From the NCBI GenBank assembly GCA_030647205.1, contig JAUSJO010000005.1:74523-138522 (forward strand): a DNA stretch of 64,000 nucleotides, written 5' to 3'. The notes under the pieces are model-generated. The model was not told the DNA's origin. It saw only the letters and a list, made by a program, of their open reading frames with translations, and did no database searches. A program made the position numbers and the translations under genes. Shown here in pieces: positions 1 to 51,539 of this stretch; the first letter of the stretch is position 1; each line of letters starts with the position of its first letter. The DNA is from a bacterium (GTDB taxonomy: Bacteria; Patescibacteriota; CPR2; UBA1875; JAJYID01).

Positions 1-480
1 TCCGCCTACGCCAATAGCAAATCCTGGTTTGGAATCGATTGAAGCGGTATTAAGCCCCGAAAATACTAACTACTACTACTTTTTCTCAGGTAAGGATGGA
101 AAGACCTATTTTTCGGAAAATCAGGATCAGCATGAAGCACTAAAGGCAAAGTATTTGTAGGTTTGTCATCCTGAGGTACGAAGAATCTCATCCTGTCATT
201 CCGGGCTTGATCCGGAATCCAGGCTAGTTAAATCTGCTATCGCAGTCATCATCATTTATCTACTTTTTTAGAAAAAGTAGAATCAAAAATCACCGACTAG
301 CACTACGAAATAGATAAAACTAATAAAAATTTATCATTCAAAACACGAAGCGTTTCACTAAAGCGTGCTTTTGTCCTAAAGGAACATTCTAAATTTTTAA
401 GTTTTATTGACTATTTCTTCGTGATGTCGGAGAAAATTAAGATTAAAATTTAGGCGGATTCGTTTGACAAGGGTAAGCTT
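1..480. repeat. Composite intergenic repeat element (type B body, hairpin units at 160-225), truncated by the window edge
   Basis: Positions 245-475 are near-identical to 19855-20100. Positions 170-222 carry GTCATCC/GTCATTCC...GGAATCC hairpins. Positions 60-115 share the 'gaaagacctatttttcg' module with 55980-56000. Confidence 0.8.
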
Positions 481-562: not shown

Positions 563-1747
563 ATGAAAAAAATCTTTAGGCCTATTGGCCAAAATACTAA
601 AAAAATATTTTCCAAAGCTAAAGCGCCGTTTACAAACGTAAAGATGCCTGACAAGGAAGCATCCTTAGGTTGGGTTTCGGGAAAGAAAGAAGGCGCGGGG
701 AGCATATTTAAGCGTTCAACGAGACGGTTTTCTCATTATGCCGTGATGTTTATATTCCTGATCGTGATTGCTGTTGGGGTCTTTACAAGACCTCACGAAA
801 ATAAAACGGAAAAAAACCCTTATCTTTTCAATAAGGTTGATGAAGAGGTCAATGAGGTAACTTATATGCAGTCGGTAGCGACTATTGGCGGTATAGTTGA
901 CGAGAAGATCAGTCAACAGGTTTATGAAGTAGAAACAAAGAATGATACAGCTCCTGTTTTGGCGGTGGCTGGAAATGGATTTTTGGCGAAACCGGTTTTA
1001 TCAGAAGCGCGAAGTTCGGGGGATAAACCAAAGAATGATATAACCGAGTATATTGTAAAAGATGGAGATACACTCTCAATCATCGCAAACAGTCTTGGGC
1101 TTACAACAGACACCTTAAGGTGGGCAAACAATATCGATGACCCGGACTCTGTAAAGCCCGGAACGAAACTTCTGATACCTCCGACTAATGGTGTTTTATA
1201 TACTGCTCAGGCAGGAGATACCATTGAGTCTATCGCAAGCAGATACAGCGGTAGCGCATCTATGATTATTGCTCAAAATGACTTATATGGAGAAGAGATC
1301 AAGGCCGGGATGAGAATAATGATACCTGATGGTGTAGGACCTGACGTTGTAAAGCCTGAACCTGAGCCAGAACCACAACAAGAGGAAGACGATGCTCCTG
1401 CGCCTCAACCAAGAACGAAAGTGGCTTCATATGGTGGCTCGTCTTACAATAGGTTTCCATATGGCTGGTGCACTTATTATGTCGCATCTAGACGAAATGT
1501 ACCGTGGAGCGGAAATGCAGGAGACTGGTACTGGAATGCTCAAAGAGCCGGATATTCAGTTGGCAGGGCGCCGTCTGCGGGAGCTATCATGGTAACGGGC
1601 GAGTCCGGTTGGGGGCATGTGGCATACGTAGAAAGCGTAAGTGGTGGATCATTCACCGTTTCTGAGATGAACTATGCGGGTTGGGGTGTTGTTTCAAGAA
1701 GGACAATTACAACCGGTCAGGTTCCGTTGTACGGGTTTATTTATTAG
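563..1747 (+). CDS. Secreted or membrane-anchored peptidoglycan hydrolase: N-terminal TM helix, two LysM repeats, C-terminal CHAP domain
   Basis: LysM motifs DGDTLSIIANSLGLTTDTLRWANNI and AGDTIESIASRY. CHAP-like C-terminus (YGWCTYYVASRR...GHVAYVESV) with Cys/His. The start may be an internal ATG at 641. Confidence 0.7.
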   Translation: MKKIFRPIGQNTKKIFSKAKAPFTNVKMPDKEASLGWVSGKKEGAGSIFKRSTRRFSHYAVMFIFLIVIAVGVFTRPHENKTEKNPYLFNKVDEEVNEVTYMQSVATIGGIVDEKISQQVYEVETKNDTAPVLAVAGNGFLAKPVLSEARSSGDKPKNDITEYIVKDGDTLSIIANSLGLTTDTLRWANNIDDPDSVKPGTKLLIPPTNGVLYTAQAGDTIESIASRYSGSASMIIAQNDLYGEEIKAGMRIMIPDGVGPDVVKPEPEPEPQQEEDDAPAPQPRTKVASYGGSSYNRFPYGWCTYYVASRRNVPWSGNAGDWYWNAQRAGYSVGRAPSAGAIMVTGESGWGHVAYVESVSGGSFTVSEMNYAGWGVVSRRTITTGQVPLYGFIY

Positions 1748-3129: not shown

Positions 3130-4008
3130 GTGACCATAAAAGAAATTCTAATTTGGAGCACGAAAGAACTCAAAAATAACAATGTTTCCGAACCTGAAAA
3201 GTCGGCAGAGCTTTTGTTGCGGCAAATATTAAATTGGGACAAAGCGAAGTTGATAGCGAATCCGGATTACAAATTGAATTCTGCTCAGGAAAGTAAATTC
3301 CGGGAATTCATTGAAAGACGTAAAAAACATGAACCGGTTTGGTATATCACGGGAAAAATCGAATTTTACGGATTAGATCTGGCAGTAAACCAGGATGTAC
3401 TTATCCCGAGACCGGAAACGGAATTTTTAGTTGAGGAAGTTCTCTCTGTCATTCTGACGAAGGAAGAATCTAAAAAGAGATCCTTCGTGCCTCAGGATGA
3501 CATATTTAGGATATTAGAGCTAGGAACCGGCAGCGGTGCGATTGCATTGTCGTTGGCAAATAAATTAAAGTCAAAAATATTTGCTTCAGATATTTCAAAA
3601 GAAGCTCTAGAAGTTGCAAAGAAAAATACGAAGAAATTAGAATTAGAAAAATACATTGAGTTTAGACAGGGGAGTTTGTTTGAACCGTGGGGCAGTGAGA
3701 AATTCGATTGTTTCGTAGCGAATTTGCCATATATTCCACATGAAGATATGAGCTCGTTAGCTCTAGATATCCATCACTTCGAGCCACGCTTAGCATTAGA
3801 CGGAGGGAAAGAAGGATTAGAAATTTATGAGGAGCTGTTGTCTCAAGCAGGAGATTATTTAAACGAAAACGCTATGATGTTTTTTGAGATAGGAATTGAT
3901 CAGGGAGATAAATTAAAGAAATTAGTAGAAAAATATCTGCCGAAAGCAAAAGTGAGGATTATAAAGGATTATGGCGATATAGATCGCATAGCGGTTATTT
4001 CTACCTAA
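3130..4008 (+). CDS. prmC: Release-factor glutamine N5-methyltransferase PrmC/HemK (GTG start)
   Basis: SAM-binding motif LELGTGSGAIAL and the NPPY-type motif 'NLPYIP'. Confidence 0.8.
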   Translation: MTIKEILIWSTKELKNNNVSEPEKSAELLLRQILNWDKAKLIANPDYKLNSAQESKFREFIERRKKHEPVWYITGKIEFYGLDLAVNQDVLIPRPETEFLVEEVLSVILTKEESKKRSFVPQDDIFRILELGTGSGAIALSLANKLKSKIFASDISKEALEVAKKNTKKLELEKYIEFRQGSLFEPWGSEKFDCFVANLPYIPHEDMSSLALDIHHFEPRLALDGGKEGLEIYEELLSQAGDYLNENAMMFFEIGIDQGDKLKKLVEKYLPKAKVRIIKDYGDIDRIAVIST

Positions 4009-4029: not shown

Positions 4030-4400
4030 GGGTAAACTCTGTGGAGGGATCCCTTTCTCTGTCATCCTGAGGCACGAAGGATCTCAATCCCATCATCCCC
4101 ACCTTCCTCTGTCATTCCCACGGAGGTGGGAATCCAGTCTTTAAAATATTATCCACTTTTTTAGAAAAAGTGGAGTAAAAATCGCGACTTATGGCGGCGA
4201 CAAAGTGTCGGATTTCAGTTCTCTCTCACTTTGAAAAAATGAACTCGCTAGATCGCTCAGACAACATTATTTTCAAAGTCTTCGTTCGCTTTATCCTCTC
4301 TTTGTCTTCGATAGTCGCATTAGAGATTATTCGGCTTATTCTCTTTTTGAAAAAATCATGCCGGGGGGGAAGTCGGATTTGGTAATTACTTTTGTCTTTT
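4030..4400. repeat. Composite intergenic repeat element (type A body, hairpin units at 4040-4140)
   Basis: Positions 4150-4385 are about 90% identical to 55765-55975. Same modules as 13262-13510 and 48880-49100: hairpin ccacttttttagaaaaagtgg, aaaatcgcgact, tttgaaaaaatgaactcgct, cgatagtcgca, tttgaaaaaatcatgccgg. Confidence 0.85.
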
Positions 4401-4406
4401 TAATTT

Positions 4407-4425
4407 TTGATTTGAGATTTATAAT
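4407..4425 (+). promoter_or_regulatory. -10 TATAAT (4420-4425) placed 6 nt before ATG 4432, implying a leaderless mRNA; TTGATT lies 7 nt upstream
   Basis: Read directly. Same architecture as 37841, 43784, 44955, 53630 and 57254. Confidence 0.45.
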
Positions 4426-4431
4426 CAAGTC

Positions 4432-8280: not shown

Positions 8281-11187
8281 ATGGCGGAAAAATACAATCA
8301 TAAAAGGATTGAATCTAAATGGCAGGAAGTTTGGGAGAAAACAAAAATCAACCGGACTGATTTGACGTCTGAAAAGCCGAAATTTTATAATCTCATAATG
8401 TTTCCTTATCCAAGCGGGGATTATCTGCATCTTGGCCATGGCTACTCGAACTCTGGGGCCGATGTATATGGCAGATATAAGGCTTTAAACGGTTTTAATA
8501 TTTTTATGCCCATTGGCTATGATTCTTTCGGTCTCCCGGCCGAAAACTTTGCTATAAAAAAAGGTATTCACCCCAGAAAAAGCGTTTCTCAAAATATTGA
8601 ACATGCGCAGAAACAGCTAAAGACTTGGGGTTGCATGTTTGATTTCTCTCGAGAGGTGACGACGTCCGAGCCGAACTATTATAAATGGACCCAATGGCTA
8701 TTTTTAAAGCTGTACGAGCAAGGTTTGGCATACCAGAAAGAGTCGCCGGTGAACTGGTGTCCGAAGTGTATGACCGTTCTCGCCAACGAACAAGTCAAAG
8801 ATGGTTTCTGTGAGAGATGCGAAGCAGAAGTAGTTCAAAAAAATATGAAACAGTGGTTTTTCAAAATCACTGACTATGCAGACAGACTGATTAAAGATTT
8901 GGATAAGGTAGACTGGCCGGAATCATCCGTGACCAAACAAAGAAACTGGATTGGCAGGAGCGAAGGGGTTCAGATGGATATGCCGGTTGCCGACTCGAAA
9001 GAGAAATTATCCGTTTTTACGACCAGAATAGATACAGTTTATGGCATGACGTATGTCGTTTTAGCTCCCGAACATCCTTTAGTTGATAAGGTTACAACTG
9101 CTGATCAGAAGAAAGAAGTTGAAAAGTACAAGATTCAAGCACAAAAACAGACGGAAATAGAACGGCAATCTCTAGAAAAGGAAAAAACAGGGGTATTTAC
9201 CGGCTCATATGCCATAAACCCATTTAACGGCGAAAAGGTACCAATTTGGATAGCCGACTATGTTTTGTTTGGATATGGCACTGGCGCCGTGATGGCAGTA
9301 CCAGCCCATGATGAGAGAGATTTTGAGTTTGCGAAGAAGTATGATTTGCCGATTATCCAGTCGATAGCTCCTGTTTTTGTTGATCCTACAAATCCGCCAA
9401 AAGATGGCATTGAAGATACGGTAAGACATGGCGTAATAGTTTTAGTTAAGCATTGGAGCGAGGACAAATATTTGCTGGATTATTCTCCGAAGTTTGGCTG
9501 GAAATGTCTTTTCTGCGGTGGTGTAGAAGATGGCGAAGATCCACTTGAGGCGGCTGCACGGGAGATCAGAGAAGAAGCGGGGTATCAGAATATCAAAGAA
9601 GTGAGATATATGCCGCTTCATCACATAGATAGATTCCATGCTCCTCACAAGGGAGTAAACAGGTACGCTCACCAAAAAAATATTTATATTGAACTTGCTG
9701 ATGGCGAGTATGTTGAACCGACTGAGGAAGAGAAAGAGCTTCATCAGGTTAGCTGGCATACTAAGGAAGAAATGCTTGAGCAAATAACATTAGTTAACCA
9801 TAAATATATTTTCGAAACGGAACTTATGAGCGGCCAAGCTTGGACAGGTTATGGAGCTCTTGTTGATTCCGCAGAGTTTACTGGACTACTTTCCGAAGAA
9901 GCGAAGAAGAAAATGGCTGAGTGGCTGGAGAAGAAGAAAGCAGGAGAAACGAAGGTTAACTATCGTCTGCATGACTGGTCTATCGGCCGGCAGAGATACT
10001 GGGGCGCTCCTATTCCCATCATTTATTGTGAGAAGTGTGGCGTTGTGCCAGTGCCTGAGAAAGATTTACCGGTTGAGCTGCCTGAAAAAATTAAAGATTT
10101 CAGGCCAAAAGGAACGGGGAAGGGGCCACTCGCCTCAGTTAAAGAATTCGTCGAAACGACATGTCCGAAATGCGGTGGTAAAGCTGAGCGTGAAACTGAC
10201 ACGATGGATACATTTGTAGACTCTAGTTTCTACTATCTCAGATATCCGAGTGTTGGTAATGATAGTGAAATGATGGAAAAGAAAGTCATCGAGAAGTGGC
10301 TGCCGGTAGATATGTATGTCGGCGGGGCTGAGCACGTGACGATGCATCTTCTCTATGCCAGGTTTATCGCAAAGGCTCTTTATGACGCTAAGCTTTTGAA
10401 ATTTGACGAACCATTTTTGAAACTTCGACATCAAGGGATGATACTTGGTCCGGACGGCAAGAAAATGTCCAAGTCTAAGGGAAATGTGGTCATACCGGAC
10501 GCAGTTATCAAGGAGCATGGAACTGATATTTTCAGGACATACATCCTTTTCATGGGCAGATTTGAAGACGGCGGGCCATGGGATCCGAAGGGGATTGTAG
10601 GCATAAAGAGATTTTTAGAAAAATATTGGTCGCTTGCTAACTTGATTTCAGCTGAAAACTTTGATTTAGATCAGTCAGTCGATGGTTCTCAGGATATGAT
10701 AGTAAAGAAAACTATCAATAAAGCTATTAAAAAAGTTGGTGAAGATATAGAAAGTTTTAAGTTTAATACGGCAATAAGCTCTCTAATGGAATGCGTTAAT
10801 GCTTTAAATTTTCTTGAAATGAAATATAAACCTAAACAGAGTATAGAATTATGGAAAAACACGGTAGAAAAATTGACCATCATACTTTCTCCATTTGCTC
10901 CCCATATGACCGAGGAAATTTGGGAGAGTCTAGGAAATACGGAGAGTGTTCATTTACAAAGTTGGCCGAAATACGATAAGGATTTAATAAAAGATGAGAC
11001 AGTAACGGTGGCTGTTCAGATAAATGGCAAGGTGAGAGAGCAGCTTCTGATCAACGTCGAAGCAGAGGAAAAAGAAGTTTTAGAACTAGCAAAAGCGAGT
11101 AAAAAAGTGCAGAATTATTTGCAAGGCAAAGAAATCAAAAAGGTGATTTATATCAAAGGTAAGCTCCTTAGCCTTGTAGTTAGCTAA
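8281..11187 (+). CDS. leuS: Leucyl-tRNA synthetase with an inserted Nudix hydrolase domain
   Basis: HIGH-type motif HLGHGYS, KMSKS (KMSKSKGN), CP1 TTRxDT motif and VNYRLHDW. About 135 extra residues (nt ~9426-9830) carry the Nudix box GGVEDGEDPLEAAAREIREEAGY (nt 9517-9585). Confidence 0.9.
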   Translation: MAEKYNHKRIESKWQEVWEKTKINRTDLTSEKPKFYNLIMFPYPSGDYLHLGHGYSNSGADVYGRYKALNGFNIFMPIGYDSFGLPAENFAIKKGIHPRKSVSQNIEHAQKQLKTWGCMFDFSREVTTSEPNYYKWTQWLFLKLYEQGLAYQKESPVNWCPKCMTVLANEQVKDGFCERCEAEVVQKNMKQWFFKITDYADRLIKDLDKVDWPESSVTKQRNWIGRSEGVQMDMPVADSKEKLSVFTTRIDTVYGMTYVVLAPEHPLVDKVTTADQKKEVEKYKIQAQKQTEIERQSLEKEKTGVFTGSYAINPFNGEKVPIWIADYVLFGYGTGAVMAVPAHDERDFEFAKKYDLPIIQSIAPVFVDPTNPPKDGIEDTVRHGVIVLVKHWSEDKYLLDYSPKFGWKCLFCGGVEDGEDPLEAAAREIREEAGYQNIKEVRYMPLHHIDRFHAPHKGVNRYAHQKNIYIELADGEYVEPTEEEKELHQVSWHTKEEMLEQITLVNHKYIFETELMSGQAWTGYGALVDSAEFTGLLSEEAKKKMAEWLEKKKAGETKVNYRLHDWSIGRQRYWGAPIPIIYCEKCGVVPVPEKDLPVELPEKIKDFRPKGTGKGPLASVKEFVETTCPKCGGKAERETDTMDTFVDSSFYYLRYPSVGNDSEMMEKKVIEKWLPVDMYVGGAEHVTMHLLYARFIAKALYDAKLLKFDEPFLKLRHQGMILGPDGKKMSKSKGNVVIPDAVIKEHGTDIFRTYILFMGRFEDGGPWDPKGIVGIKRFLEKYWSLANLISAENFDLDQSVDGSQDMIVKKTINKAIKKVGEDIESFKFNTAISSLMECVNALNFLEMKYKPKQSIELWKNTVEKLTIILSPFAPHMTEEIWESLGNTESVHLQSWPKYDKDLIKDETVTVAVQINGKVREQLLINVEAEEKEVLELAKASKKVQNYLQGKEIKKVIYIKGKLLSLVVS

Positions 11188-13196: not shown

Positions 13197-13515
13197 TCTT
13201 TCTCTGTCATTCCGACCGAAGCGGAGGAATCCCTTTCTCGTCATTCTGGCTTGTCCAGAATCTATTATTATTTATCCACTTTTTTAGAAAAAGTAGAGCA
13301 AAAATCGCGACTAGACGGCTTCTCAAAGTGTCGCTCAAACCTCATCTCAAATTTGAAAAAGGACAACAAGCCGATTCCGGAAGCCCTTTTCCAAAATTTC
13401 GTCTCGGTTTTCACTCGCTTATTGAACCGATAGTCGCAAATACTATTTATAAAGTTCATTCTCGCTTTGAAAAAAATCATGCCGGAGGACTCTCTTCCTT
13501 TGTGATGCTGGGAGT
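13197..13515. repeat. Composite intergenic repeat element (hairpin units 13200-13265 plus a type A variant body)
   Basis: Same module order as the 4030 and 55603 copies. ORFs at 13251-13561 on both strands lie inside it and are judged spurious. Confidence 0.8.
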
Positions 13516-13589
13516 AAAATTTCAATTTTCGAATCTTTTTTCTTGTGCTACAATAGTTTAGATTTATTTAGGATTTTTTGGAGGCGTAT

Positions 13590-16127
13590 TTGTATTTAAA
13601 AAATATCAATGTAACGGGGTTTAAATCTTTCGGGGCGAAGAACGTCTTGGATTTTCCCCGTGAAGGAAAAGGCAAGCAGCGAAGCTTTACCGCTGTTGTC
13701 GGACCAAACGGAAGCGGGAAGAGCAATATCGCAGATGCTATCCGCTGGGCATTGGGCGAACAATCCTCTAAGTTATTACGAGTTAAGAAAAACGAAGATG
13801 TCATCTTTTTTGGAAGTGCCAAGAAGGGCAAAGGGTCGTTCACCGAGATTTCAATGACTCTTGATAACTCCGACAAGTCCGCGCCGGTTGATCTCACTGA
13901 AATAGAAGTAACTCGCCGTCTCTACAGAAACGGCGACAACGAATATCTTATTAACCGCAAAAAAGTACGGCTTTTAGACGTTCAGGAGTTGCTTGCCAAG
14001 TGTGGCATCGGACGCTCAACTTATACTGTTATCGGCCAGGGGATGGTTGACTCGCTTTTGTTTTATGGCCCCGCAGAAAGAAAGGTTCTCTTTGAAGAAG
14101 CGTCAGGGGTTAAACAATATGAGATTAAGCGGTCGGAATCCATAAGGAAACTGGATGCCACCGATAAAAATATTATCCGCATAAAAGATTTGCTATACGA
14201 ACTCGAGCCAAGGCTGAAGCAGGCAGAGAGACAGAACAAGAAATTCCAGAAAAAGCAGGAGATAGAGACGGAGCTGGATGAACTCAGTCGTAAATACTAC
14301 ACAAATGTCTTATCGGATATTACGGGCAAAAAGTCTGTTTTGGACGCAAAGCTAGAAAAACTGAGAGAGCAGGAAGGTGTCTTAAAGTCAGAAATAGTTG
14401 CCATTGAAGCTCGCATTGCCAAGGGATTAAAAGCACAAGGGAGCGATAAGGAAGAAAAAGAGCTAAAGGCGAAGATTGATGGGTTGTATTCTAAGAAGAA
14501 TGTGATTTCGCAGCAAATTTACAAAATCCAGGCAGAGAGTGAGGCAGTTGTATCGGTTTATGCCAGAGAAAAGGATGGTTTGGTCCGTGAAAAAGAAACT
14601 TGCGAGAGGGAGATCGCTAACCTCAAGGAGCGTTCAGCTAGGATTAGTACCGAAAACGGACAGCTGGCAGAGAGACTAAATGGTGCGAAAAAGGAACTAG
14701 AAGGCATTGATGTAAAAATTGTAGCGGCAAACGAGGAACTTGCAAAAGCGCAGCGGGAAAGCGTGGTCATGGGTAAAGACGACATCTCACGAGAGCTTGA
14801 AAGTGTATCCGCTGACTATAAAAAGATAGTTACGCAAATTAGTACGGTCAAGGACTTAAAATCACTTACAAATCTCAAATCTGGGGCAGAAGAGTTAAGC
14901 CAAAAGATGGACGAGTTGATAAGAAAGATTAAAAAGAGCCAAAATGCCGATACTTCAAATATAGAGAAGAAACAGGAAGAGATTGGAAGATTATCAGGGA
15001 ATAAAGAAATTATTTTGAAAGAGATTCAGGATTTGAGAGTTCGGGAAATATCTCGGGCAGAGACTTTAAAGAATATTGATACTCAGGCCAAAGATTACGG
15101 CTCAAGACTTGAGGTTGCGGGTCAAAAGATTGCAAAGCTGGAAAAACCGGCCGAAAAAGATTCATCAGAGGTGAATAAATTGATTTCAGAGAAAGAAAAG
15201 TTAGAATCAGAAATTACTGGTTTGAAGGCAAAGCTAGAAAAGATCGAGAATGCCAGCGCAAGCGGGGACTACTCGAAAGTTCTTGAAGAAGAAAAGGCAA
15301 AAAGGGCAGAGATTTCTAGAGTTGGGGACGATATTAACTCGGCAATGGTAGAGCTAGCAAGAGTTGAAACAAAGAGCGATGATCTAAAAAGTGAAATTCA
15401 TGAGTTTTTGGGCGAGGCATTTTACAAAGAAATTTCCGATTCTCGTCATTCTGGCAATGTCCAGAATCCATCAGAAAACGTAGAACATCTAATGCCAAAA
15501 ATTCAACGGCTTCGCAAGGACATGTATGCGCTTGGCGAGATAGATCACTTTATCAAGGAAGAGTTTGAAGAACTAGAGGTGAGAGTTGGTGAGCTTTCAA
15601 GTCAGCTTGGGGATTTGGAAAAAGCAAAAACAGATATTTTAAAAATCATCGGTGAGTTGGATATAAGGATCAAAACACAGTTTCAAGCCACTTTTGCTAG
15701 GATTTCTGAAGAGTTTACTAAATATTTCAAAATACTCTTTAATGGCGGCAATGCGACGCTAAATCTGGAGACAGATGAAGAGGGGAACTTTGGAGTAGAA
15801 ATAGGCGCGACACCGCCGGGGAAGAAAAACCAGTCATTGAATTCATTATCAGGTGGCGAAAGAGCGCTGACGTCTATAGCACTTCTTTTTGCAATTCTGT
15901 CCGTCAATCCAAGCCCATTCTGTGTACTTGATGAGGTTGATGCCTCGCTTGACGAAACAAATACAGAACGATTTCTAAAAATATTACAGACGCTTTCTCA
16001 TAAAACTCAGTTTGTCGTGGTTACGCATAACCGCGAAAGCATGAAAAAAGCCGACATTATTTACGGCGTTTCGATGGATGACAACCACGTCTCGCAGGTG
16101 TACTCTTTGAAACTGACGGAAGTTTAG
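13590..16127 (+). CDS. smc: SMC-like chromosome segregation ATPase: short, hinge-less, all coiled-coil between the head halves
   Basis: N-terminal FKSFG...GPNGSGKSNIADAIRWALGEQS (Walker A). C-terminal LSGGERALTSIALLFAI signature and Walker B (CVLDEVDASLD). RBS GGAGG precedes TTG 13590. Only about 845 aa with no Gly-rich hinge visible. Confidence 0.8.
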   Translation: MYLKNINVTGFKSFGAKNVLDFPREGKGKQRSFTAVVGPNGSGKSNIADAIRWALGEQSSKLLRVKKNEDVIFFGSAKKGKGSFTEISMTLDNSDKSAPVDLTEIEVTRRLYRNGDNEYLINRKKVRLLDVQELLAKCGIGRSTYTVIGQGMVDSLLFYGPAERKVLFEEASGVKQYEIKRSESIRKLDATDKNIIRIKDLLYELEPRLKQAERQNKKFQKKQEIETELDELSRKYYTNVLSDITGKKSVLDAKLEKLREQEGVLKSEIVAIEARIAKGLKAQGSDKEEKELKAKIDGLYSKKNVISQQIYKIQAESEAVVSVYAREKDGLVREKETCEREIANLKERSARISTENGQLAERLNGAKKELEGIDVKIVAANEELAKAQRESVVMGKDDISRELESVSADYKKIVTQISTVKDLKSLTNLKSGAEELSQKMDELIRKIKKSQNADTSNIEKKQEEIGRLSGNKEIILKEIQDLRVREISRAETLKNIDTQAKDYGSRLEVAGQKIAKLEKPAEKDSSEVNKLISEKEKLESEITGLKAKLEKIENASASGDYSKVLEEEKAKRAEISRVGDDINSAMVELARVETKSDDLKSEIHEFLGEAFYKEISDSRHSGNVQNPSENVEHLMPKIQRLRKDMYALGEIDHFIKEEFEELEVRVGELSSQLGDLEKAKTDILKIIGELDIRIKTQFQATFARISEEFTKYFKILFNGGNATLNLETDEEGNFGVEIGATPPGKKNQSLNSLSGGERALTSIALLFAILSVNPSPFCVLDEVDASLDETNTERFLKILQTLSHKTQFVVVTHNRESMKKADIIYGVSMDDNHVSQVYSLKLTEV
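15443..15470. repeat. Hairpin repeat unit (tcgtcattctggcaatgtccagaatcc) inserted in-frame inside smc
   Basis: Near-identical to the intergenic unit at 13237-13263. It is read through as ...SDSRHSGNVQNPSE.... Confidence 0.7.
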
Positions 16128-19009: not shown

Positions 19010-19040
19010 GAAAAAAGCCACACTCGTGGCTTTTTTTGAT
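19010..19040 (+). terminator. Rho-independent terminator
   Basis: Hairpin aagccacactcgtggctt followed by ttttttt. Confidence 0.6.
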
Positions 19041-19051
19041 AAAATAAAACT

Positions 19052-19727: not shown

Positions 19728-20110
19728 AATCTTGTCATTCCGACCGATACCACGCTAGTGGAAAGCGGAGGAATCCCTTTCTCCGTATGTCATTCCCGCA
19801 CTGGATCTAGTTCAGCGTAAACATCCGGCGGGAATCTAGTCTTTAAAATATTATCCACTTTTGTTTGGGCAAAAGTGGAGCAAAACCCACCGACTAGCAC
19901 TACGAAATAGATAAAACTAATAAAAATTTATCATTCTTGCGCACGAAGCGTTTCACTAAAGCGTGCTTTTGTCCTAAAGGAGCATTCTAAATTTTTAAGT
20001 TTTATTAGCGACGTAAGGTGAGTGGTATGAAAAGGTAATCCTTTTTTATATCTGAGCCGAGGAGCTAAAATATTTTAACTATTTCTTCGTAATGTCGGGA
20101 AGAGAACAAA
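19728..20110. repeat. Composite intergenic repeat element (hairpin units 19730-19850 plus a type B body)
   Basis: The body is near-identical to 245-475. Confidence 0.85.
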
Positions 20111-20231
20111 AAATCACGCCGGACGAGATACTGTGACGTTGGGAGGAGAGAAAAATTTTCCACTTTACACGGAGTCAAAAAATATCTATTATTTATCTAT
20201 AAAACTAAAATATTGAGGGAGTTTATTTAAA

Positions 20232-28440: not shown

Positions 28441-28532
28441 CGTGCTATAGTAAGCACTCAAATTAGCTACGAAAGTTAGGGGGTAGCCTCTAACTTTTTA
28501 AAAGCTCGAACTTTGAAACGAGGTGAACTAAG
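28441..28532 (+). promoter_or_regulatory. Extended -10 promoter (TGcTATAGT) plus an ~85-nt conserved leader, copy 1
   Basis: About 80% identical to 29553-29642 upstream of a different gene. Confidence 0.6.
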
Positions 28533-29552: not shown

Positions 29553-29642
29553 TGTGCTATAATAAACACTCAAATTAGCTAGGAAAAGTTGGAGGGTATC
29601 TTCAGCTTTTTAAATGCTTGAACTTTGAAAAAGGAGACGGTA
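29553..29642 (+). promoter_or_regulatory. Extended -10 promoter (TGcTATAAT) plus the conserved leader, copy 2
   Basis: Paralogous to 28441-28532. Confidence 0.6.
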
Positions 29643-31489: not shown

Positions 31490-34315
31490 ATGCAGGATAA
31501 AATCATAGTCAGGGGTGCTCGCGAGCACAACCTAAAAAATATAGATGTTGAAATCCCTAGGGATAAATTAGTCGTGTTTACAGGACTTTCCGGTTCAGGA
31601 AAGTCCTCTTTGGCCTTTGATACCATTTATGCTGAGGGCCAGAGGCGCTACGTGGAGAGTCTTTCCTCATATGCGCGCCAGTTCCTCGGCCTCATGGAAA
31701 AACCCGATGTGGACCAGATAGAGGGCCTCTCACCGGCTATTTCTATCGATCAGAAGTCTACCACCCGCAACCCGCGCTCCACAGTCGGCACCGTTACTGA
31801 GATTTACGACTATTTGAGAATACTTTATGCACGCATCGGCGTTCCACACTGTCCTTTGTGTGGGAAAGAGATTAGAAAGCAGACCATACCTCAAATCATT
31901 GAACAGATAATGGCGATGAAAAAGGGCACCAAGTTCATGATACTGGCACCTATCATCCGTGATAAGAAAGGCGTTCATAAGTATGTCTTTGCCGAGCTGC
32001 AAAAGGCCGGCTATGCAAGGGTGCGCGTGGACGGCAAGGTCTATGAAGTTGAGGATACGCCCGTTTTAGATAAGAACAAAAAGCATACGATAGATGCGGT
32101 TATAGACCGATTTACTTTAGATAAAGAAATAGAAAAGCGCATATCCCAGTCGGTAGAAAGTGCCGTAAATCTTGGCGAGGGAGTAATAATTTTGTTCAAC
32201 TCCGAGACCAAAGAAGAGAAAATATTTTCCCAGCACTTTGCATGCCTCGACTGCGGCATCAACCTTCCTGAAATATCACCGAGAAGCTTCTCGTTTAACT
32301 CTCCATACGGCGCGTGCCCGTACTGCACGGGACTTGGCGTCAAGCTTGAAATAGACCCGAAACTTGTCGTTCCAAACGCAAATCTTAGTATTCCAGAAGG
32401 CGCTATCCGCCCTTGGTCCAGAACCGCCAGCAAGATGGGTTGGTACATCAAACTGCTCTACGGAGTTGCCGAGAAGCACGGATTTGATATAAACGCGCCC
32501 TACAAAGACCTGCCCAAAAAGGCAAAAGACATCGTGATGTACGGCACGGGTGACGAAACCTACAACGTTCACATGGGGCTTCGAGAGTACACCTCAGACT
32601 ATGAAGGCGTAGTTGCTAATCTTGGCAGACGTCACAAAGAAACCGACTCTGATTATGTCAGAAAAGAAATAGAAAGGTATATGAGTGAGAAGGAGTGTCC
32701 GAAGTGTAAAGGAACTCGCCTCAAGCCTGAAATAGCCGCAGTTACAGTTGGCGGTAAGACAATAGTCGAGATAGTCACTATGTCACTCGATAGGGCACAC
32801 GAGTTTTTTGAAACCATGAAACTTTCAGATAGAGATCAGCAAATAGCTGTTCAAGTCCGCAAAGAGTTGTCAGAGCGAATAAATTTTTTGCTCAATGTCG
32901 GACTTAACTACCTGACACTCGACCGTTCTGCGACGACCCTTTCCGGCGGAGAAGCCCAACGTATAAGATTAGCCACACAGATCGGTTCATCCCTCATGGG
33001 CGTGCTTTATATACTAGACGAGCCGTCCATCGGCCTTCACCAGCGTGACAATATACGCCTCATCGAGACATTAAAGCGCCTTCGTGACCTTGGAAACACC
33101 GTCATCGTCGTAGAGCACGACGAGGAAACCATGCTGAACTCAAACTGGATTCTCGACATTGGTCCCGGAGCAGGGGAAGCTGGCGGACGCATCATCGCCC
33201 AGGGCACACCGGAGCAGATTATGAAAGACCCGAAGTCCATCACAGGACTCTACCTTTCAGGCAAGAAAACCGTAGATTCACCAGAAAAGCGCCGAAATGG
33301 ACACGGAAACTCCATCACCATAGAGGGCGCCACCGAGCATAACTTACGTGACGTCACAGTAGACATCCCACTCGGCAAGCTCGTTCTCTGTACAGGCGTC
33401 TCTGGCTCAGGCAAGTCATCTCTCATTAACGACATCCTAGCCAAGAAGCTCTCCCAAGTATTCCACCGGGCACAGGCGCTACCGGGCAAACACAAGAGCA
33501 TCAAAGGCCTCACCAATCTCGACAAAGTCATCGACATCGACCAGTCGCCGATAGGCAGAACCCCTAGAAGCAACCCCGCCACCTACACAGGCGTATTTAC
33601 GGAAATCCGCGACCTTTTCGCATCCGTTCCCGAGGCAAAGATACGCGGGTACAAGCCGGGACGCTTCAGTTTCAACGTCAAAGGCGGCCGATGTGAGGCG
33701 TGTCGCGGTGAAGGTATCCTGAAGATTGAGATGCACTTCCTCCCCGACGTCTACATCACTTGCGAGGAGTGTAAGGGCAAGCGCTACAACGCGGAAGTTC
33801 TCGATATCAAATACAAAGGCAAAAATATCTCTGATGTTCTGGAAATGACGGTCTCAGAGGCGCTCCAATTCTTTAAAAATATTCCTAAAATCCAAATGAA
33901 GCTGGAAACGCTTGAACGAGTAGGCTTGGGTTACATACGACTTGGCCAGCCGGCAACGACACTTTCCGGCGGTGAATCTCAAAGGGTGAAATTATCGACC
34001 GAATTATCTAAGAAATCTACCGGCAAGACGCTCTACATTCTGGATGAGCCGACTACCGGCCTGCACATGGACGATGTAAATCGCCTAATGAATATCCTAA
34101 ACGCGCTTGTTGACATGGGAAATACCGTGCTTGTTATCGAGCACAATCTGGAGGTTATCAAGGGCGCGGACTGGATTATAGATCTCGGGCCTGAAGGCGG
34201 GGATAAAGGGGGAGAAGTGGTTGCCGAAGGAACCCCGGAACAAGTGGCACGAAATAAAAAATCTTATACAGGGCAATACTTGGCTGAGATCTTGAAGAAA
34301 GGAGCTATTAAATGA
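31490..34315 (+). CDS. uvrA: Excinuclease ABC subunit A (start chosen at ATG 31490; the ORF extends to TTG 31466)
   Basis: [18 protein letters not shown]; two ABC modules; Zn fingers. The C-terminal tail after ...EGTPEQV is a lineage-specific extension. Confidence 0.95.
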
Positions 34316-34545
34316 ATTGGCTCAGTGCTTTAGCTGATATATTTACAATTTTAGGATTCCCAATAGCTGTTATTTTAGTAATAAAAGAGTTTCGTAAAGA
34401 GGGGAAAATTCTAAATAACATTGAAAGCTCAATTTCTAGTGGGAATATTTCTGCTGACAAGATAAACAATAAAGGTGATATTATAAATTATACAGTCAAT
34501 AATCATATTAGCAGCGAACTAAAGGAAAAAAGCAATGAAAAATGA
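34312..34545 (+). CDS. Small membrane protein (hypothetical) in the AT-rich segment
   Basis: ORF overlapping the uvrA stop. Confidence 0.4.
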
Positions 34546-34870
34546 AAACAAATTTGATATCAAAGAAGGGACTGTTAGTTTTTGGACAAAACCTGGGCAA
34601 ATCGATTTTTCAGGTAATCAGATTATGCCGATGATACAATTCGACTCTCCAAATGGATCAATTTTTATTGTCAAGGATGATGATAAGAAGATTAAATTTT
34701 TCCACGTTTACTTAGGTAAGGGAAGAACTGATGTAGAACATGATGTTTCGGGTTTAGACCCAAAAACTGAACATATGTTTGCTTTTACGTGGAGCATAAA
34801 AGAGAGATCTCTAAATATTTATATTGATGGCGAGCTGAAAAATACAACAAAGATTGACTATATAAAGTAA
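34535..34870 (+). CDS. Concanavalin-A-like (Laminin_G_3-type) jelly-roll domain fragment
   Basis: GTVSFWTKPGQ...MFAFTWSIKERSLNIYIDGEL matches LamG_3 hallmarks. Confidence 0.45.
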   Translation: MKNENKFDIKEGTVSFWTKPGQIDFSGNQIMPMIQFDSPNGSIFIVKDDDKKIKFFHVYLGKGRTDVEHDVSGLDPKTEHMFAFTWSIKERSLNIYIDGELKNTTKIDYIK

Positions 34871-34872
34871 TT

Positions 34873-34922
34873 GGGGCGGGGAAATAGTGGCAGAAGGAAC
34901 TCCGGAACAAGCGGCAAAATAA
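34873..34922 (+). pseudogene. Degraded duplicate of the uvrA 3' end (encodes ...[11 protein letters not shown])
   Basis: Aligns to uvrA 34193-34257 (ggcgggga.aa...gaaggaac.ccggaacaag.ggca..aaataa). Confidence 0.7.
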
Positions 34923-34984
34923 CTTCCTTTTCTATTGACAAAAACCCCAATTAGAACTAATATTTGTTTTAAGAAAGGGATTTT

Positions 34985-35767
34985 ATGAAATCCAGGATTT
35001 GTTTACTAATTTTTGCTCTCGCACTAATGGCCTTTCCATTAGGAAATGTTAATGCCGCTGTTAAAGTTAATGGCTATATTAGAGATGGAAAGTGGGTTAG
35101 CAGTTATGTTCGTTCCGAACCAAATGCATTAAAATATGACAATTATAGCTATAAATCCGGTGATGATCTTTACAACAAGAGTTATTCTTCTTCCACTAAG
35201 AGTTATTCTTCAAAATGGTATACGCCCTCATATAGCTGGGACGATGATTATTACACTGGTCTTTCTTGGTACAATACTTACGGTGGAGGAAGTAAAACTA
35301 AAACTTATAGTTCATCATATTCCCCGTCTTTAAGTAGTTATACTTTTCCCAGCACAAGTAGTTATTCACTAGATAATGATAACTATTACTCAAGTTATTG
35401 GACTTCTAGATATAAACCTTCATATTCTTCCAGCACTTATAAATCGTTATTTGATGATTCTGAAGACGATAATAATAGTTATACGCCTTCATATAATTCA
35501 ACATATAAACCCTATACTCCTAGTTACACCCCAAGCTACAAACCTTACACACCCAGTTACACAACACCGAGTTACACCACTCCAAGCTATAAACCCTATA
35601 CTCCTAGTTACAGTACGCCGAGCTACAATTCTTACGCACCAAGCTATGGGTCTTCAAGTTATGGTAGCTCTGGAAGTTCTTATGGCGGATATGGTTCTTC
35701 GAGTTATGGCAGTTCGTATGGTTCTGGAAGTTATGGTTCAAGCTATGGATCATCATATAATTATTAG
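34985..35767 (+). CDS. Secreted Ser/Tyr/Gly/Pro-rich low-complexity repeat protein
   Basis: Signal peptide MKSRICLLIFALALMAFPLGNVNA; repeats (TPSY/KPYTPSY)n and GSSYG. Confidence 0.55.
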   Translation: MKSRICLLIFALALMAFPLGNVNAAVKVNGYIRDGKWVSSYVRSEPNALKYDNYSYKSGDDLYNKSYSSSTKSYSSKWYTPSYSWDDDYYTGLSWYNTYGGGSKTKTYSSSYSPSLSSYTFPSTSSYSLDNDNYYSSYWTSRYKPSYSSSTYKSLFDDSEDDNNSYTPSYNSTYKPYTPSYTPSYKPYTPSYTTPSYTTPSYKPYTPSYSTPSYNSYAPSYGSSSYGSSGSSYGGYGSSSYGSSYGSGSYGSSYGSSYNY

Positions 35768-35783
35768 TTAAGTAGGAGTATTT

Positions 35784-36092
35784 ATGAAAAAATCAGAAAA
35801 ATTTTTAGTTGTTGTTGGAGTACTTTTTGTTGTTGCATTTACTTTTTCAGCAGTTCTTAATTACCTAGATTACAAATTAAAGAAAGAAGGGTATATAACA
35901 ACTCTTTTTCAAACATATACCAGTAATGTAGAAGCATGTCGGGAAGCAGTTAATAAAGCTAACGAGAAGGCTTCTGATCAAGAAAAGAAAGACGCAGTTA
36001 AAAAGACATGTATTGATGAAATCAACAATAACAGCAGAGAAGCAAAGCTTTTGAAAAATTGGGGACAGAGTAGTCTTTTAAGTAAGGAATAG
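35784..36092 (+). CDS. Small membrane-anchored hypothetical protein
   Basis: RBS AGGAG. ORF. Confidence 0.4.
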   Translation: MKKSEKFLVVVGVLFVVAFTFSAVLNYLDYKLKKEGYITTLFQTYTSNVEACREAVNKANEKASDQEKKDAVKKTCIDEINNNSREAKLLKNWGQSSLLSKE

Positions 36093-36103
36093 GAAATTTT
36101 AAT

Positions 36104-36511
36104 ATGGACTTAGTGAAGGCTAGTAAAGATGATTGTATTTTTAAATGTAGAGATTACAAAAAAGTATTAACTCATTTTACAAAAAAAAATTATTATCGTC
36201 ATGCAAAAAAAAGACCAATTTTGCTAGATAAAACCTTCCTTCCCCCAAGAGTCAAAGAGGCACTCGTTAATCCATCAATAATAATGCCGAGTCACAACGA
36301 TAAAGACGCTCATTGTTATTACCATCACGAGATAAGCGTTAATAGGAATATTAACTGGTATACAAAAGTCGTTGTTCATATTGGACATACGGACGTTGAC
36401 ACTAAAGAGAGAGTGAACTATATTAAAACTGCATGGAGAGTAAACTTAATCAAAGAATTAGCATATAATAAAAAACCAATATATTATGATGGCACCAGTC
36501 CCAAAAGTTAA
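36104..36511 (+). CDS. Hypothetical protein (possible DUF4258-like toxin partner)
   Basis: ORF adjacent to and overlapping a DUF2283-like gene. Weak support. Confidence 0.3.
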   Translation: MDLVKASKDDCIFKCRDYKKVLTHFTKKNYYRHAKKRPILLDKTFLPPRVKEALVNPSIIMPSHNDKDAHCYYHHEISVNRNINWYTKVVVHIGHTDVDTKERVNYIKTAWRVNLIKELAYNKKPIYYDGTSPKS

Positions 36512-36920
36512 ATTAGATATTGATAAAATCAAAGACCAATTAGCTAGTCTGATGAAGATAGCAAAGACAAAAAGTTGGAAATTTGCTTATGATGAAGAAT
36601 TGGATTGTCTTTATTATTCACCTGAAGAATTAAAGGGTAATTTGATAACATTTAGCTTTGACAAGGAATTTACATTTTATATTGACACAAAGTCCAATAT
36701 ACATGGTTTTTTTATTGAATACTTCTCTACGAACTTTCTTGAGCATGAGAAAAAATTCAAAGAACTACCTGGGATGATGACTAAAGAAGAGAATGGCCTT
36801 AAAGTTGTTCCCAAAAAAGACCAAGAAAAATCAGAACTAGTAGAAACGGCTTTAGTCTCAGAAGTTATGTCGGGTTTTTTTCAAAATACTAAAAATCTAA
36901 AAGATTTAGTAGTAGCTTAG
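36486..36920 (+). CDS. Hypothetical protein with a DUF2283-like motif (FAYDEELDCLYYSP)
   Basis: Motif match from memory. Confidence 0.35.
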   Translation: MMAPVPKVKLDIDKIKDQLASLMKIAKTKSWKFAYDEELDCLYYSPEELKGNLITFSFDKEFTFYIDTKSNIHGFFIEYFSTNFLEHEKKFKELPGMMTKEENGLKVVPKKDQEKSELVETALVSEVMSGFFQNTKNLKDLVVA

Positions 36921-37033
36921 TTTGAAACCTCGCCCTAAAGTCTAGTGAAGTTTTGTATACTTGTCTTGGTTTAATAAAAGGAATAAAATACTAATGAGGG
37001 TGAGGCCCTTATTTTTTATTAGTATTCTAAATA

Positions 37034-37756
37034 ATGGATAAAGAGACAATAAAACTTTTAATAAGTCCAGAGGCTATACAAGCGATAACGGTTGGAATTT
37101 TTCTGATTATAATAATATTTACGTTAAAGAAAATAGTATCTTCAGAAGATCGCAATTTTGAAATAACCCTACAAAAAATTATTGGCGGTTTGAGCGTGTT
37201 TATCATCGCGGTTATATCTCAAAATACCTATGTCTTTTTATTGTCTCTTTTTATAGGAGGCTTAATTATTGCTAGTGAGGATTTCATGAAAGTTTTTGCA
37301 GCAATTCTTCGATCAGACCCAGAAAAAATACATGAAATTATCAATGCTGATATTGGTAGAAAAAAACCATCTGAAGTACAGCCTTCAAAGGAGGGAATTG
37401 AAGCGAGGGCTAGTGATGCCGGCAAGGTTATTGACGAGAAAGATAATGAAAAGACAAAACTGCAAATTGAGTTGGATTTCGAAAGAATTTATAATTTTAT
37501 TTTTGGTAGTCAAATATTCTTATTAAGAGAGATAAAAAGTAGGAATGGGGTAGGGTGGGATTATGTAAGTGATTATTTTGATTCTCTTAGAAGAGAATAT
37601 TCAGTCTTCAACAGTTGGAATTTGAATACTTATCTTGAATTCCTAAAAACTCATAGTTTAATTGAAATGAAAGATAATTTTATAACAGTTAGCCAGAAGG
37701 GAGAAACCTTTATAAGTTATATTGATTATATGAACTATCAAAAGTATGGTCTTTAG
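37034..37756 (+). CDS. Hypothetical membrane protein
   Basis: ORF with N-terminal TM helices. Confidence 0.4.
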   Translation: MDKETIKLLISPEAIQAITVGIFLIIIIFTLKKIVSSEDRNFEITLQKIIGGLSVFIIAVISQNTYVFLLSLFIGGLIIASEDFMKVFAAILRSDPEKIHEIINADIGRKKPSEVQPSKEGIEARASDAGKVIDEKDNEKTKLQIELDFERIYNFIFGSQIFLLREIKSRNGVGWDYVSDYFDSLRREYSVFNSWNLNTYLEFLKTHSLIEMKDNFITVSQKGETFISYIDYMNYQKYGL

Positions 37757-37837
37757 TTTAATTCTCAACCCCACCGCCTTTGGCGGGGCAGGCCCTGGAT
37801 TTTCTCGGGCAGGCAAACCCTCAAATTAAAATAATTG

Positions 37838-37846
37838 TGCTATAAT
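37838..37846 (+). promoter_or_regulatory. Extended -10 (TGcTATAAT) 7 nt upstream of ATG 37854, implying a leaderless mRNA
   Basis: Read directly. Confidence 0.45.
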
Positions 37847-37853
37847 TTTGCTT

Positions 37854-38957: not shown

Positions 38958-38981
38958 TTTCAATGTAGAACAGTTTCTGTG

Positions 38982-42497: not shown

Positions 42498-42519
42498 TAT
42501 ACACCAGGGCAGAATGTGG

Positions 42520-51534: not shown

Positions 51535-51539
51535 ATATT

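Follow-up and report, generated by a model that had tools for sequence, protein, structure and literature searches.

Results

Composite repeats in a housekeeping region of a Patescibacteria genome

The window analysed here is a 64,000-nucleotide (nt) stretch of contig JAUSJO010000005.1 (positions 74,523 to 138,522 of the forward strand) from a bacterium of the Patescibacteriota, and it carries six copies, c1 to c6, of a composite non-coding repeat built around a small hairpin (H1), an A-rich linker and a long imperfect hairpin that we call the rod. The GC content of the window is ~41-42%, and its core housekeeping genes include those for Obg, PrmC, a GGDEF protein, PanD, RpiB, LeuRS, YceD, NusB, RNase III, SMC, S16, a KH-domain protein, TrmD, a ferredoxin, UvrA/B/C, NrdR, CofD, LigA, GatA and a cyclophilin. 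The + strand carries nearly all of the genes, and in 31 of 32 two-kb windows the GC skew is positive; the stretch therefore belongs to a single replication arm. The closest public relatives are groundwater Patescibacteria metagenome-assembled genomes (MAGs), namely H41-bin225_1, DS4.bin43 and the DBS2-1 bins, whose genes are ~77-82% identical in DNA sequence to those of the window.

The composite repeats are real, with modules in a fixed order, on one strand and far beyond chance expectation. An initial annotation of the window had proposed at least six long copies with ordered modules, and self-BLAST and motif scans recovered all six together with every motif quoted for them, each on the + strand. 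Compared with dinucleotide shuffles, the H1 17-mer with up to two mismatches was found six times (0.11 expected), CGATAGYCGCA five times (0.02 expected), AAAAAAYCAYGCYRG six times (0.14 expected), and hairpins of the form GTCATYC...GRATC 21 times (0.71 expected). The copies are 286-508 nt long and together take up 2,218 nt, or 3.5% of the window and ~21% of its ~9.2 kb of intergenic DNA, so the earlier picture of a family saturating intergenic space at about 4% of the window was overstated. They occupy five of the 12 intergenic gaps of at least 200 nt, the gap of c3 being split into pieces of less than 200 nt by the gene set, which is based on open reading frames (ORFs). Two boundaries also required correction: the first copy, given as 1-480, spans about 160-445, and the fifth, given as starting at 48830, begins near 48800.

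By self-BLAST, c2 and c6 are 87% identical over 248 nt (94% in the core alone), c1 and c4 are 86% identical over 170 nt, and the remaining pairs are 66-72% identical over various lengths; the 85-95% identity over 200 nt or more that had been ascribed to the copies is, as worded, true of no pair. Stops interrupt all six frames in every copy except c3, where one + frame is open across its 319 nt and is not kept in the other copies. The 26 substitutions between c2 and c6 fall 5, 9 and 12 by codon phase, a weak bias at most.

Anatomy of the repeat

A copy is composed, from 5' to 3', of 0-3 GTCATYC...GRATC hairpins, H1, the A-rich linker, a rod of type A or type B, and a 3' mini-hairpin module. H1 (YYACTTTTTTAGAAAAAGTRR) is a conserved AU-rich hairpin, observed as the variant CCACTTTTG...CAAAAGTGG in c4 and TTAC...GTAA in c5. 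The linker follows the consensus RYAAAAATC, and the rod of the window copies is an imperfect hairpin of 130-210 nt. In type A the rod is closed by helix P1 (GCGRCT...AGYCGC), contains conserved inner strands TCTCAAAGTGTCG / CTCGCTTTTCGANCCGAT, and ends in an apical hairpin, H3 (TTTGAAAAA-nnn...nnn-TTTTCAAA). Folds and alignment thus identify what had been taken for weak inverted symmetry of the flanks (gcgact...agtcgc) as P1, the closing helix of the internal rod hairpin. The type-B rod of c1 and c4 is closed by CCGAC...GTCGG and has an interior unlike that of type A. The sequence that had been assigned to the 3' module, gactatttcttcgtgatgtcggga, is the 3' arm of the type-B rod; the near-universal module is AAAAAATCAYGCYRG followed by a mini-hairpin, which is present in c2-c6 and in related loci. 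Likewise, the GTCATYC hairpins said to abut the copies consistently do so in five of the six, c5 being without them.

Modules are gained, lost and recombined among the copies, as had been suggested in part from their variation. In c4, hairpins and an H1 similar to those of c6 stand before a rod like that of c1, the tail of c6 (55932-56046) holds nested 3' fragments of type-B and type-A rods, and c5 is preceded by two degenerate partial H1-linker units (48805-48885); therefore modules recombine.

Short hairpins also occur apart from the composite copies. Four convergent pairs, each of one forward and one reverse unit, lie at 3448/3501, 11221/11310, 18465/18528 and 60008/60063 with no H1-rod between them. 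Units of the GTCATYC type stand in frame inside two genes, at 3448-3501 in the PrmC ORF (3130-4008) and at 15445-15468 in the SMC ORF (13578-16127). The convergent pair in PrmC encodes ...SVILTKEESKKRSFVPQDD... between the N-domain and the methyltransferase domain, and the single unit in SMC encodes ...SRHSGNVQNP...; at the same SMC position the H41 relative (locus L089, 6990-7040) has a different tandem palindrome, ATAGGGTGCGACCCTAT, twice. These in-frame hairpins resemble the in-frame palindromic elements of Rickettsia.

Table 1 Coordinates of the repeat copies, of the modules of copy c2 and of related features in the 64,000-nt window.
Feature	Position	Strand	Description
Copy c1	160-445	+	Type B; hairpins 165-187, 195-219; H1 260-280; linker 285-291; rod 292-431
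Copy c2	4030-4400	+	Type A; H1 4153-4173; rod 4184-4318; 3' module 4347-4380
Copy c3	13197-13515	+	Type A, gamma subtype; hairpins 13206-13231, 13240-13262; H1 13276-13296; rod 13307-13437; 3' module 13468-13512
Copy c4	19728-20150	+	Type B, extra branch; hairpins 19734-19775, 19789-19836; compensated H1 variant 19855-19878; rod 19889-20099; 3' module 20105-20145
Copy c5	48800-49110	+	Type A, beta subtype; H1 48893-48913; rod 48924-49057; 3' module 49071-49104; no GTCATYC hairpins
Copy c6	55603-56110	+	Type A, alpha subtype; hairpins 55614-55636, 55648-55689, 55703-55746; H1 55767-55787; rod 55798-55931; 3' module 56059-56100
Short REP-like hairpin GTCATCCTGAGGCACGAAGGATC (c2)	4061-4083	+	GTCATYC..GRATC pattern; 97% identical unit at 55609-55638
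Short hairpin GTCATTCCCACGGAGGTGGGAATC (c2)	4111-4134	+	Fits 20-bp pattern ATTCCC-N8-GGGAAT
H1 of c2, CCACTTTTTTAGAAAAAGTGG	4153-4173	+	10-bp stem, UAG loop
A-rich linker AGTAAAAATC (c2)	4174-4183	+	Reads GATTTTTACT on the - strand, directly after helix P1
Type-A rod (c2)	4184-4318	+	Long imperfect hairpin; P1 = GCGACT 4184-4189 / AGTCGC 4313-4318 (fold)
H3 of c2, TTTGAAAAAATG...CATTATTTTCAAA	4230-4277	+	Internal-loop motif GAACTCG..CTCAGACA at 4241-4263
3' module of c2, TTTGAAAAAATCATGCCGG and mini-hairpin	4347-4380	+	Linker-like A-run, then short stem-loop
GATAGYCGCA	4310, 13429, 49049, 55923, 56037	+	Motif scan
Type-B body CACGAAGCGTTTCACTAAAGCGTGC	344, 19942	+	Motif scan
Empty site	19030-19045	.	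Locus L014 has a 224-nt insertion with a type-A element here (alignment)

The H1-linker-rod unit crosses phyla

A first scan with the exact pattern 'H1 core, 2-4 nt, AAAATC' in one genome per species gave 30 loci, with hosts in Sulfurovum (including the complete genome of strain CS9), Flavobacteriales, Chryseobacterium, Lacihabitans and several Patescibacteria including a Saccharibacteria MAG. An exact-pattern scan of metagenomes gave at least 120 loci, with host GC of 24-57% among the matches listed; all counts over family instances (for example 105, 135, 136 or 142) and all orientation and skew counts given below are likewise among the matches listed. H1 is common to Patescibacteria, Campylobacterota and Bacteroidota in the exact-pattern scan, and the H1-linker-rod unit belongs, on these matches, to a family that crosses phyla and is far larger than the set in the window. 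The conservation of the inner H1 stem and the linker across loci is partly imposed, because the searches used an exact pattern containing them.

In every host group a hairpin of 44-290 nt lies directly 3' of H1 and the linker. A closing 7-mer was found in 64 of 136 instances and a closing 9-mer in 36 of 135, compared with 7 in reversed-arm controls. The Sulfurovum form is minimal, with an 8-bp P1 around CTCTCGAATCGCTTCGCTTTCAAGGGCGTTC and conserved strands similar to the type-A inner strands, and the Flavobacteriales long form extends ~290 nt after H1 (L010 1831-2360; also L007, L008, L011 and L018), one H1 of L010 having a hairpin inserted between GAGC and the A-run. Many rods, including those of c2 and c6 (GAACTCG...CTCAGACA), carry an apical internal loop with RAACUC on the 5' side, a variable hairpin, and UCARACA on the 3' side; the strict form of this pattern is present in 41 of 142 instances.

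One virus, represented by two contigs (L031 764-857 and L032 1599-1692), carries two tandem H1-linker-short-hairpin units in a divergent intergenic region, and also has other hairpins of the CCACC...GGTGG kind. The genes of this virus, encoding GDP-mannose dehydratase, epimerases, lipase 3, DHFR and DUF7197, make it probably giant-virus-like. A viral sequence search with the Sulfurovum core gave no match. A phage vector was considered on the strength of a match to the type-A 3' motif in one viral contig and set aside, since that match lies inside a coding region and is a chance match.

The fold is under selection

Compensatory change shows that the fold of the H1-linker-rod unit is under selection. 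In a set of 105 distinct sequences, all four kinds of Watson-Crick pair occur at the three outer positions of the H1 stem, the outer helix is 97.3% paired as against 84.5% in shuffles and 57-66% in slid controls, and there are 137 double-change cells as against 43 in shuffles. Compensated variants of the inner H1 stem are observed in copies found in other ways, including CCACTTTTG/CAAAAGTGG in c4, GCAAC/GTTGC and GTTAC/GTAAC in L010, and GTTTTTTT/AAAAAAAC in L038, and the CTAC/GTAG inside the H1 stem covaries with CCAC/GTGG, GCC/GGC and others. The minimal Sulfurovum form shows double changes in eight pairs and is 97.2% paired, compared with 40-57% with slid partners. In the type-A rod, P1 column 39:198 is AU in 10, GC in 9 and GU in 1 of 20 copies, and the H3 subtypes differ by compensating changes (ATG/CAT, ATT/AAT, TGAC/GTCA and CCAC/GTGG). 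The covariation check proposed in the initial annotation therefore returned strong compensatory change in H1, P1, H3 and the minimal form.

An extended H1 helix, formed between a U-rich leader and the A-rich linker, is plausible in Sulfurovum and the broad family and was rejected as a general feature, being absent from c2 and c6. Resemblances to the Cas12a repeat stem (UCUAC/GUAGA), the tRNA-Leu(UAG) anticodon arm, a DnaA box (TTATCCAC), IHF sites and single-strand promoters were also dismissed as coincidental, because the bases concerned covary or only a subset of copies has them.

Turnover and recent copying

Presence of the element varies between related genomes. Locus L014 has a 224-nt insertion, with a type-A element antisense to the genes, between the terminator T-run that follows the KH-domain gene and the start of TrmD, at a site that is empty in the window. 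At this one clean junction the insertion ends (ATAATTTGAATG... / ...CATCAGAGAAAG) are not inverted copies of one another, so that terminal inverted repeats are absent, and comparison with the empty site (CTTTTTTT|GATAAAATA) reveals no junction repeat of more than 1 nt in the filled site, and hence no target duplication. The 224-nt indel includes ~39 nt upstream of H1 that are not common to other copies. Conversely, the TrmD|ferredoxin spacer of L014, which is orthologous to the site of c4, lacks this copy. In L029, hairpins and an element separate two genes that directly adjoin in the window, and L012 has an H1-rod element set between a forward and a reverse short hairpin that lie side by side in L029.

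Copying within genomes is, on these comparisons, more recent than the divergence of the genomes themselves: identity reaches 90-94% between the cores of paralogues (c2/c6, and the delta copies of H41) and only 67% (c6/L020) and 73% (c3/L089, the L089 copy being of the delta subtype) between copies at orthologous sites, where the flanking genes are ~77-82% identical in DNA. For c5, a match of 91% is found with a copy that occupies a non-orthologous site in MAG DS4.bin43. Locus L010 has two tandem 3'-truncated copies, both cut near ...CCCTAGGC and each followed by a new complete 5' end. One type-A copy (L092 7097-7284) has the palindrome GCCTGCCTGCCGGCAGGCAGG nested inside its rod. That palindrome recurs in a second MAG (L029 about 880-910, reverse strand) as the loop of a GTCATTCC hairpin, which suggests that small hairpins insert into larger elements.

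Gene context and strand signal

The element occupies the gap from the end of one gene to the promoter of the next. The gene upstream runs in the same direction as the element in 84 cases versus 24, and the surrounding arrangement is >> in 49, << in 12, convergent in 16 and divergent in 6. Placement is in most cases 30-190 nt after a co-oriented stop codon, and promoters of downstream genes lie beyond the elements, as with the TTGACA-18-TATAAT at 464-493 downstream of c1. Patescibacterial copies are almost always co-oriented (19 versus 3), and Sulfurovum copies are mixed in orientation (>> 9, << 6). GC skew is positive in element orientation at 74 of 92 loci, a signal confounded with gene direction; at loci with coding mostly on the opposite strand it is positive in 4 and negative in 8, with GC3 skew at 7 versus 5.

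On the reverse strand the base of the rod is GC-rich and leads into GAUUUUU, and this strand folds slightly better (41 rods versus 21). Mismatches of the G.U and A.C types are about equal in the rods, 66 for the + and 84 for the - strand, a balance that fits a DNA-level or two-strand constraint better than a single-strand RNA. Given the near-equal mismatch types and the folding results, there is no clear signature of an RNA made from one strand, and the evidence that mismatches and folding energy give on a functional strand is weak and partly contradictory. No consistent promoter for the element was found on either strand; -35/-10-like boxes on the - strand after c2 and c3, and TTGAAT-N15-TTTAAT on the + strand in the L014 insert, were rejected as own promoters since they are not conserved among copies.

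Searches for known families and partners

At gathering scores, Rfam 15 identified only tRNAs in the window, and at E<=1 to E<=10 five loci, L136 and window positions 4030-4431 gave chance-level matches far below gathering scores. The remark that the repeat is not obviously any named element thus stands as far as Rfam 15 RNA families are concerned. BLAST of c6 in distant mode against annotated phages and plasmids gave no match, and in the literature searched neither the H1 sequence, on either strand or in either alphabet, nor anything relevant on repeats, miniature inverted-repeat transposable elements (MITEs) or repetitive extragenic palindromic (REP) elements of Patescibacteria was found.

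No transposase domain is present among the 64 window ORFs scanned, and clustering of 714 ORFs yielded no recurrent neighbour protein, only housekeeping synteny plus GT4 glycosyltransferases, UvrC, HemN and OTCase. A tblastn search with an IS608 TnpA sequence, a weak test, gave no match below E=1 in 1.04 Mb; together with neighbour clustering, this weak search placed no tnpA or tnpB near ~140 copies. An autonomous copy with a gene inside the rod was also sought and rejected, no long-range closing arm being found within 4 kb.

Other features of the window

The LeuRS gene (8281-11187) encodes a NUDIX domain inserted at residues 386-502, beyond the editing domain. Six tRNA genes (Leu, Leu, Cys, Gly, Phe, Val) are clustered at 51343-51955 on the - strand, in a region otherwise on the + strand. 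Positions 34000-38000 have a GC content of 32-36% as against ~42%, and small genes mostly without a Pfam match, one with a laminin-G/concanavalin-like domain; this stretch may be a foreign island. A direct repeat of 238 nt, 85% identical (38981-39218 and 42519-42756), has in each copy a - strand ORF of ~48 codons resembling a small membrane peptide, and it encloses 3.3 kb with - strand genes for an Imm5-like immunity protein (42045-42497) and a PaaX/Cas2-like protein (41427-41960). Two further repeats are separate from the H1-rod family: the hairpin GGCACGAGATTTTGCTATCGCACAATCTCGTGCC, which occurs twice 157 nt apart (41200-41254 and 41357-41411), and a 77-nt pair, 79% identical (28442-28518 and 29554-29630), 5' of two + strand genes.

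Discussion

Comparison with known repeat systems

In architecture the arrays most resemble the Neisseria intergenic mosaic elements (NIME) and the REP family with its bacterial interspersed mosaic elements (BIME) and REPIN hairpins, and in fold the enterobacterial repetitive intergenic consensus (ERIC) and Correia elements. Each comparison breaks down on a defining feature: terminal inverted repeats and target duplication are absent, a REP-associated tyrosine transposase (RAYT) was not seen in the sequence searched, the hairpins do not stand on both sides, and the repeat is spread beyond one lineage.

The initial annotation had called the family MITE-like or a structured-RNA repeat, and its modular, non-coding and structured character is borne out. 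Like classic, DDE-derived MITEs the repeat is short, non-coding and multicopy; unlike them it is asymmetric, with H1 at one end only, and, as judged from the one clean junction, lacks terminal inverted repeats and target duplication, so that it is not a MITE in the strict sense.

In NIME, short GC-richer inverted repeats alternate with AT-richer modules of 50-150+ nt belonging to many families, and the arrays are strain-dynamic, intergenic and non-coding; the short repeat dRS3 is a 20-bp inverted repeat, ATTCCC-N8-GGGAAT (PMC1797815). The arrays of short hairpins and repeat modules described here are similar, and two window hairpins fit the dRS3 pattern exactly. The hairpins lie, however, 5' of H1 rather than on both sides, with a reverse closing hairpin in only some loci (L012), and the modules are structured, with covariation and a conserved H1, features not described for the Neisseria repeat-sequence (RS) elements. 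The host phylum also differs, the core unit crosses phyla, and no dRS3-targeting recombinase was seen.

With REP, BIME and REPIN the repeat shares a non-coding, intergenic and multicopy nature, a folded hairpin with compensatory stem evolution, and the absence of terminal inverted repeats and target duplication; long hairpins made from inverted halves (REPIN), mosaic clusters (BIME) and a position at the 3' ends of transcription units are further likenesses. It differs in being an asymmetric H1 and rod rather than a doublet of one REP, in spanning three phyla where REP families are lineage-specific, and in the conserved asymmetric internal loop of the rod. No conserved tetranucleotide adjoins the palindrome, CTAC/GTAG being within the stem and covarying, and no gene for a RAYT, the Y1 HUH transposase of REP/REPIN systems, was found in the 64 kb and the ~1 Mb of fragments.

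ERIC (intergenic repeat unit, IRU) and Correia (CREE/NEMIS) elements are comparable as imperfect palindromes of 100-200 nt that are intergenic and co-transcribed, with size variants arising by internal insertion and possible effects on transcript stability or processing. Terminal inverted repeats and a TA target duplication mark both families, each of which is known from a single bacterial group. The present repeat shows neither feature at its one clean junction, and it has an extra conserved hairpin outside the rod. Pneumococcal BOX elements (boxA-boxB(n)-boxC) are similarly intergenic, with ordered sub-units that vary in number and a predicted stable structure; they occur in streptococci only, with no single hairpin described across phyla, and are set apart here by description, their module sequences not being known to be related. 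Palindrome-associated transposable elements (PATE), which derive from IS200/IS605 and its single-strand transposition, share asymmetric ends, the lack of inverted repeats and duplications, and hairpin recognition, and would be expected to show a bias to one replication strand, for which the skew at 74 of 92 loci is confounded with gene direction. They have similar hairpins at both ends, in contrast to the single H1 here, which has no counterpart at the 3' end. Integron attC sites are likewise long imperfect hairpins, active as folded single strands, which vary in sequence, keep their structure and all point one way; on inspection, however, the repeat lacks their R''/R' core sites (RYYYAAC / GTTRRRY), is accompanied by neither cassette genes nor an integrase, and has housekeeping neighbours.

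A candidate hairpin-dependent mobile element

Our preferred, though tentative, reading of the repeat is a non-autonomous, hairpin-dependent mobile or recombining element that is analogous to REP/REPIN, BIME and NIME and a member of none. In favour of it are the six non-coding copies, the fold under selection, the turnover between related genomes, the recent copying, the fragments and nested pieces, the lack of a linked gene in the sequence searched, the balanced mismatch counts, and the bias in orientation and placement. H1 would be the likely recognition hairpin, read by an enzyme supplied in trans, and the element may spread as folded single-stranded DNA, by ectopic recombination between GTCATYC hairpins, H1 and linker, or by both; such spread would explain why the copies are mosaic and their boundaries fuzzy. 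The bias in orientation could originate from the reverse strand, where a GC-closed hairpin and GAUUUUU resemble an intrinsic terminator; within the gene arrays of Patescibacteria, which run in one direction, selection would then tolerate only copies placed so as not to stop sense transcription. As a side effect, a transcribed rod would form a stable double-stranded RNA on the 3' side of the preceding message.

Several observations weigh against this proposal. From an element that is structured, variable in presence and recently copied we infer, in a further step, a specific mobilisation chemistry, and no mobilising enzyme was found in the 64 kb and the ~1 Mb of fragments. Insertion boundaries are not sharp, and the L014 indel would be explained just as well by a recombination patch, or by a deletion on the lineage of the window. 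The REP/RAYT systems known so far are lineage-specific, unlike H1. The invariance of H1 is partly imposed by the exact search pattern. A conserved asymmetric loop and a near-invariant H1 in hosts of 24-57% GC are more typical of an RNA that binds a ligand or protein than of selfish DNA. In five Sulfurovum species, moreover, with flanking proteins 70-95% identical, the element is kept at one orthologous intergenic site, a pattern like that of host retention.

The main alternative is a structured RNA that serves the host, as a small-RNA gene or an element of the 3' untranslated region, in which a conserved protein would recognise H1 and the RAACUC/UCARACA loop, for instance to process, stabilise or sequester RNA, with multiplicity due to duplication. 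It is favoured by the compensatory changes in every helix tested, the conserved asymmetric loop between variable stems (the 41 of 142 instances above), the conservation of H1 across phyla, the shared Sulfurovum site, and the usual position 30-190 nt after a co-oriented stop codon. Terminator hairpins on the + strand after some copies (L005, L006 and L014) point the same way, as does the fourth outer position of H1, which is T.G (U.G) in 55 of 142 instances. We nevertheless consider it unlikely on balance, given that the folding and mismatch counts carry no single-strand signature, Sulfurovum copies lie in mixed orientation, and neither strand has a consistent promoter. Six copies per 64 kb, with fragments and nested pieces, are unlike a regulator gene family; the bodies of type A, type B and the Flavobacterial form are wholly different, with only H1 and the linker in common; and presence differs among close relatives.

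A terminator or insulator cassette on the - strand, predicted from the sequence as a GC-closed long hairpin, GAUUUUU and a second AU hairpin, is an improbable primary function. It would act in antisense termination in Patescibacteria and in sense termination at part of the Sulfurovum loci, the minimal form perhaps being weakly bidirectional. All copies have the 6-8 bp P1 followed by GATTTTT on the - strand, with a hairpin 45-210 nt in length, though the U-run is part of the search pattern and its ubiquity is thereby imposed. Enrichment at gene 3' ends (convergent versus divergent spacers, as counted above), the slightly better fold of the - strand, several Sulfurovum copies directly after a - strand gene (L023, L002 and L003), and the L014 insertion, which adjoins an existing terminator, agree with such a role. 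In most copies, however (the 49 '>>' cases and all six window copies), the terminator-like strand is antisense to both neighbours, so that no annotated gene is terminated; the conserved 17-nt H1 and the internal loop are unnecessary for termination, rods of 130-210 nt far exceed known intrinsic terminators, and fragments and mosaics are left unexplained.

Mis-assembly of collapsed repeats or a hidden small conserved protein gene is effectively excluded: the copies differ (66-94% identity), which is not expected of collapsed repeats, assemblies made independently in other studies (L020/L094 and L089) have similar elements at orthologous sites, the complete genome of Sulfurovum sp. CS9 carries the element too, and, the one stop-free frame of c3 apart, stops are present in all frames, lengths ignore codons and substitutions track base pairs.

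Implications

Patescibacteria have streamlined genomes of ~1 Mb, and a repeat that takes up 3.5% of a housekeeping region and about one-fifth of its intergenic DNA is therefore unexpected. A near-invariant 17-nt hairpin with covarying outer pairs is found in at least three phyla, in hosts of 24-57% GC among the matches listed, and is not in Rfam. It is conceivable, if doubtful, that the H1-linker-rod unit represents an ancient, pan-bacterial and possibly viral class of structured element with a dedicated partner, a system of its own in the manner of REP-RAYT or attC-integrase; the partner would be either a new hairpin-guided mobilisation enzyme or an RNA-binding factor that reads H1 and the RAACUC/UCARACA loop. 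In practical terms, such repeats break metagenome assemblies, mark strain variation in uncultured bacteria and can alter transcription boundaries. The complete genome of Sulfurovum sp. CS9 would make the question directly testable in that strain if it is a cultured isolate. If the element is mobile, a hairpin-recognising mobilisation system of a new kind would be at work across phyla; if it acts as RNA, it would be a widespread new class of structured RNA with a protein-sized recognition surface.

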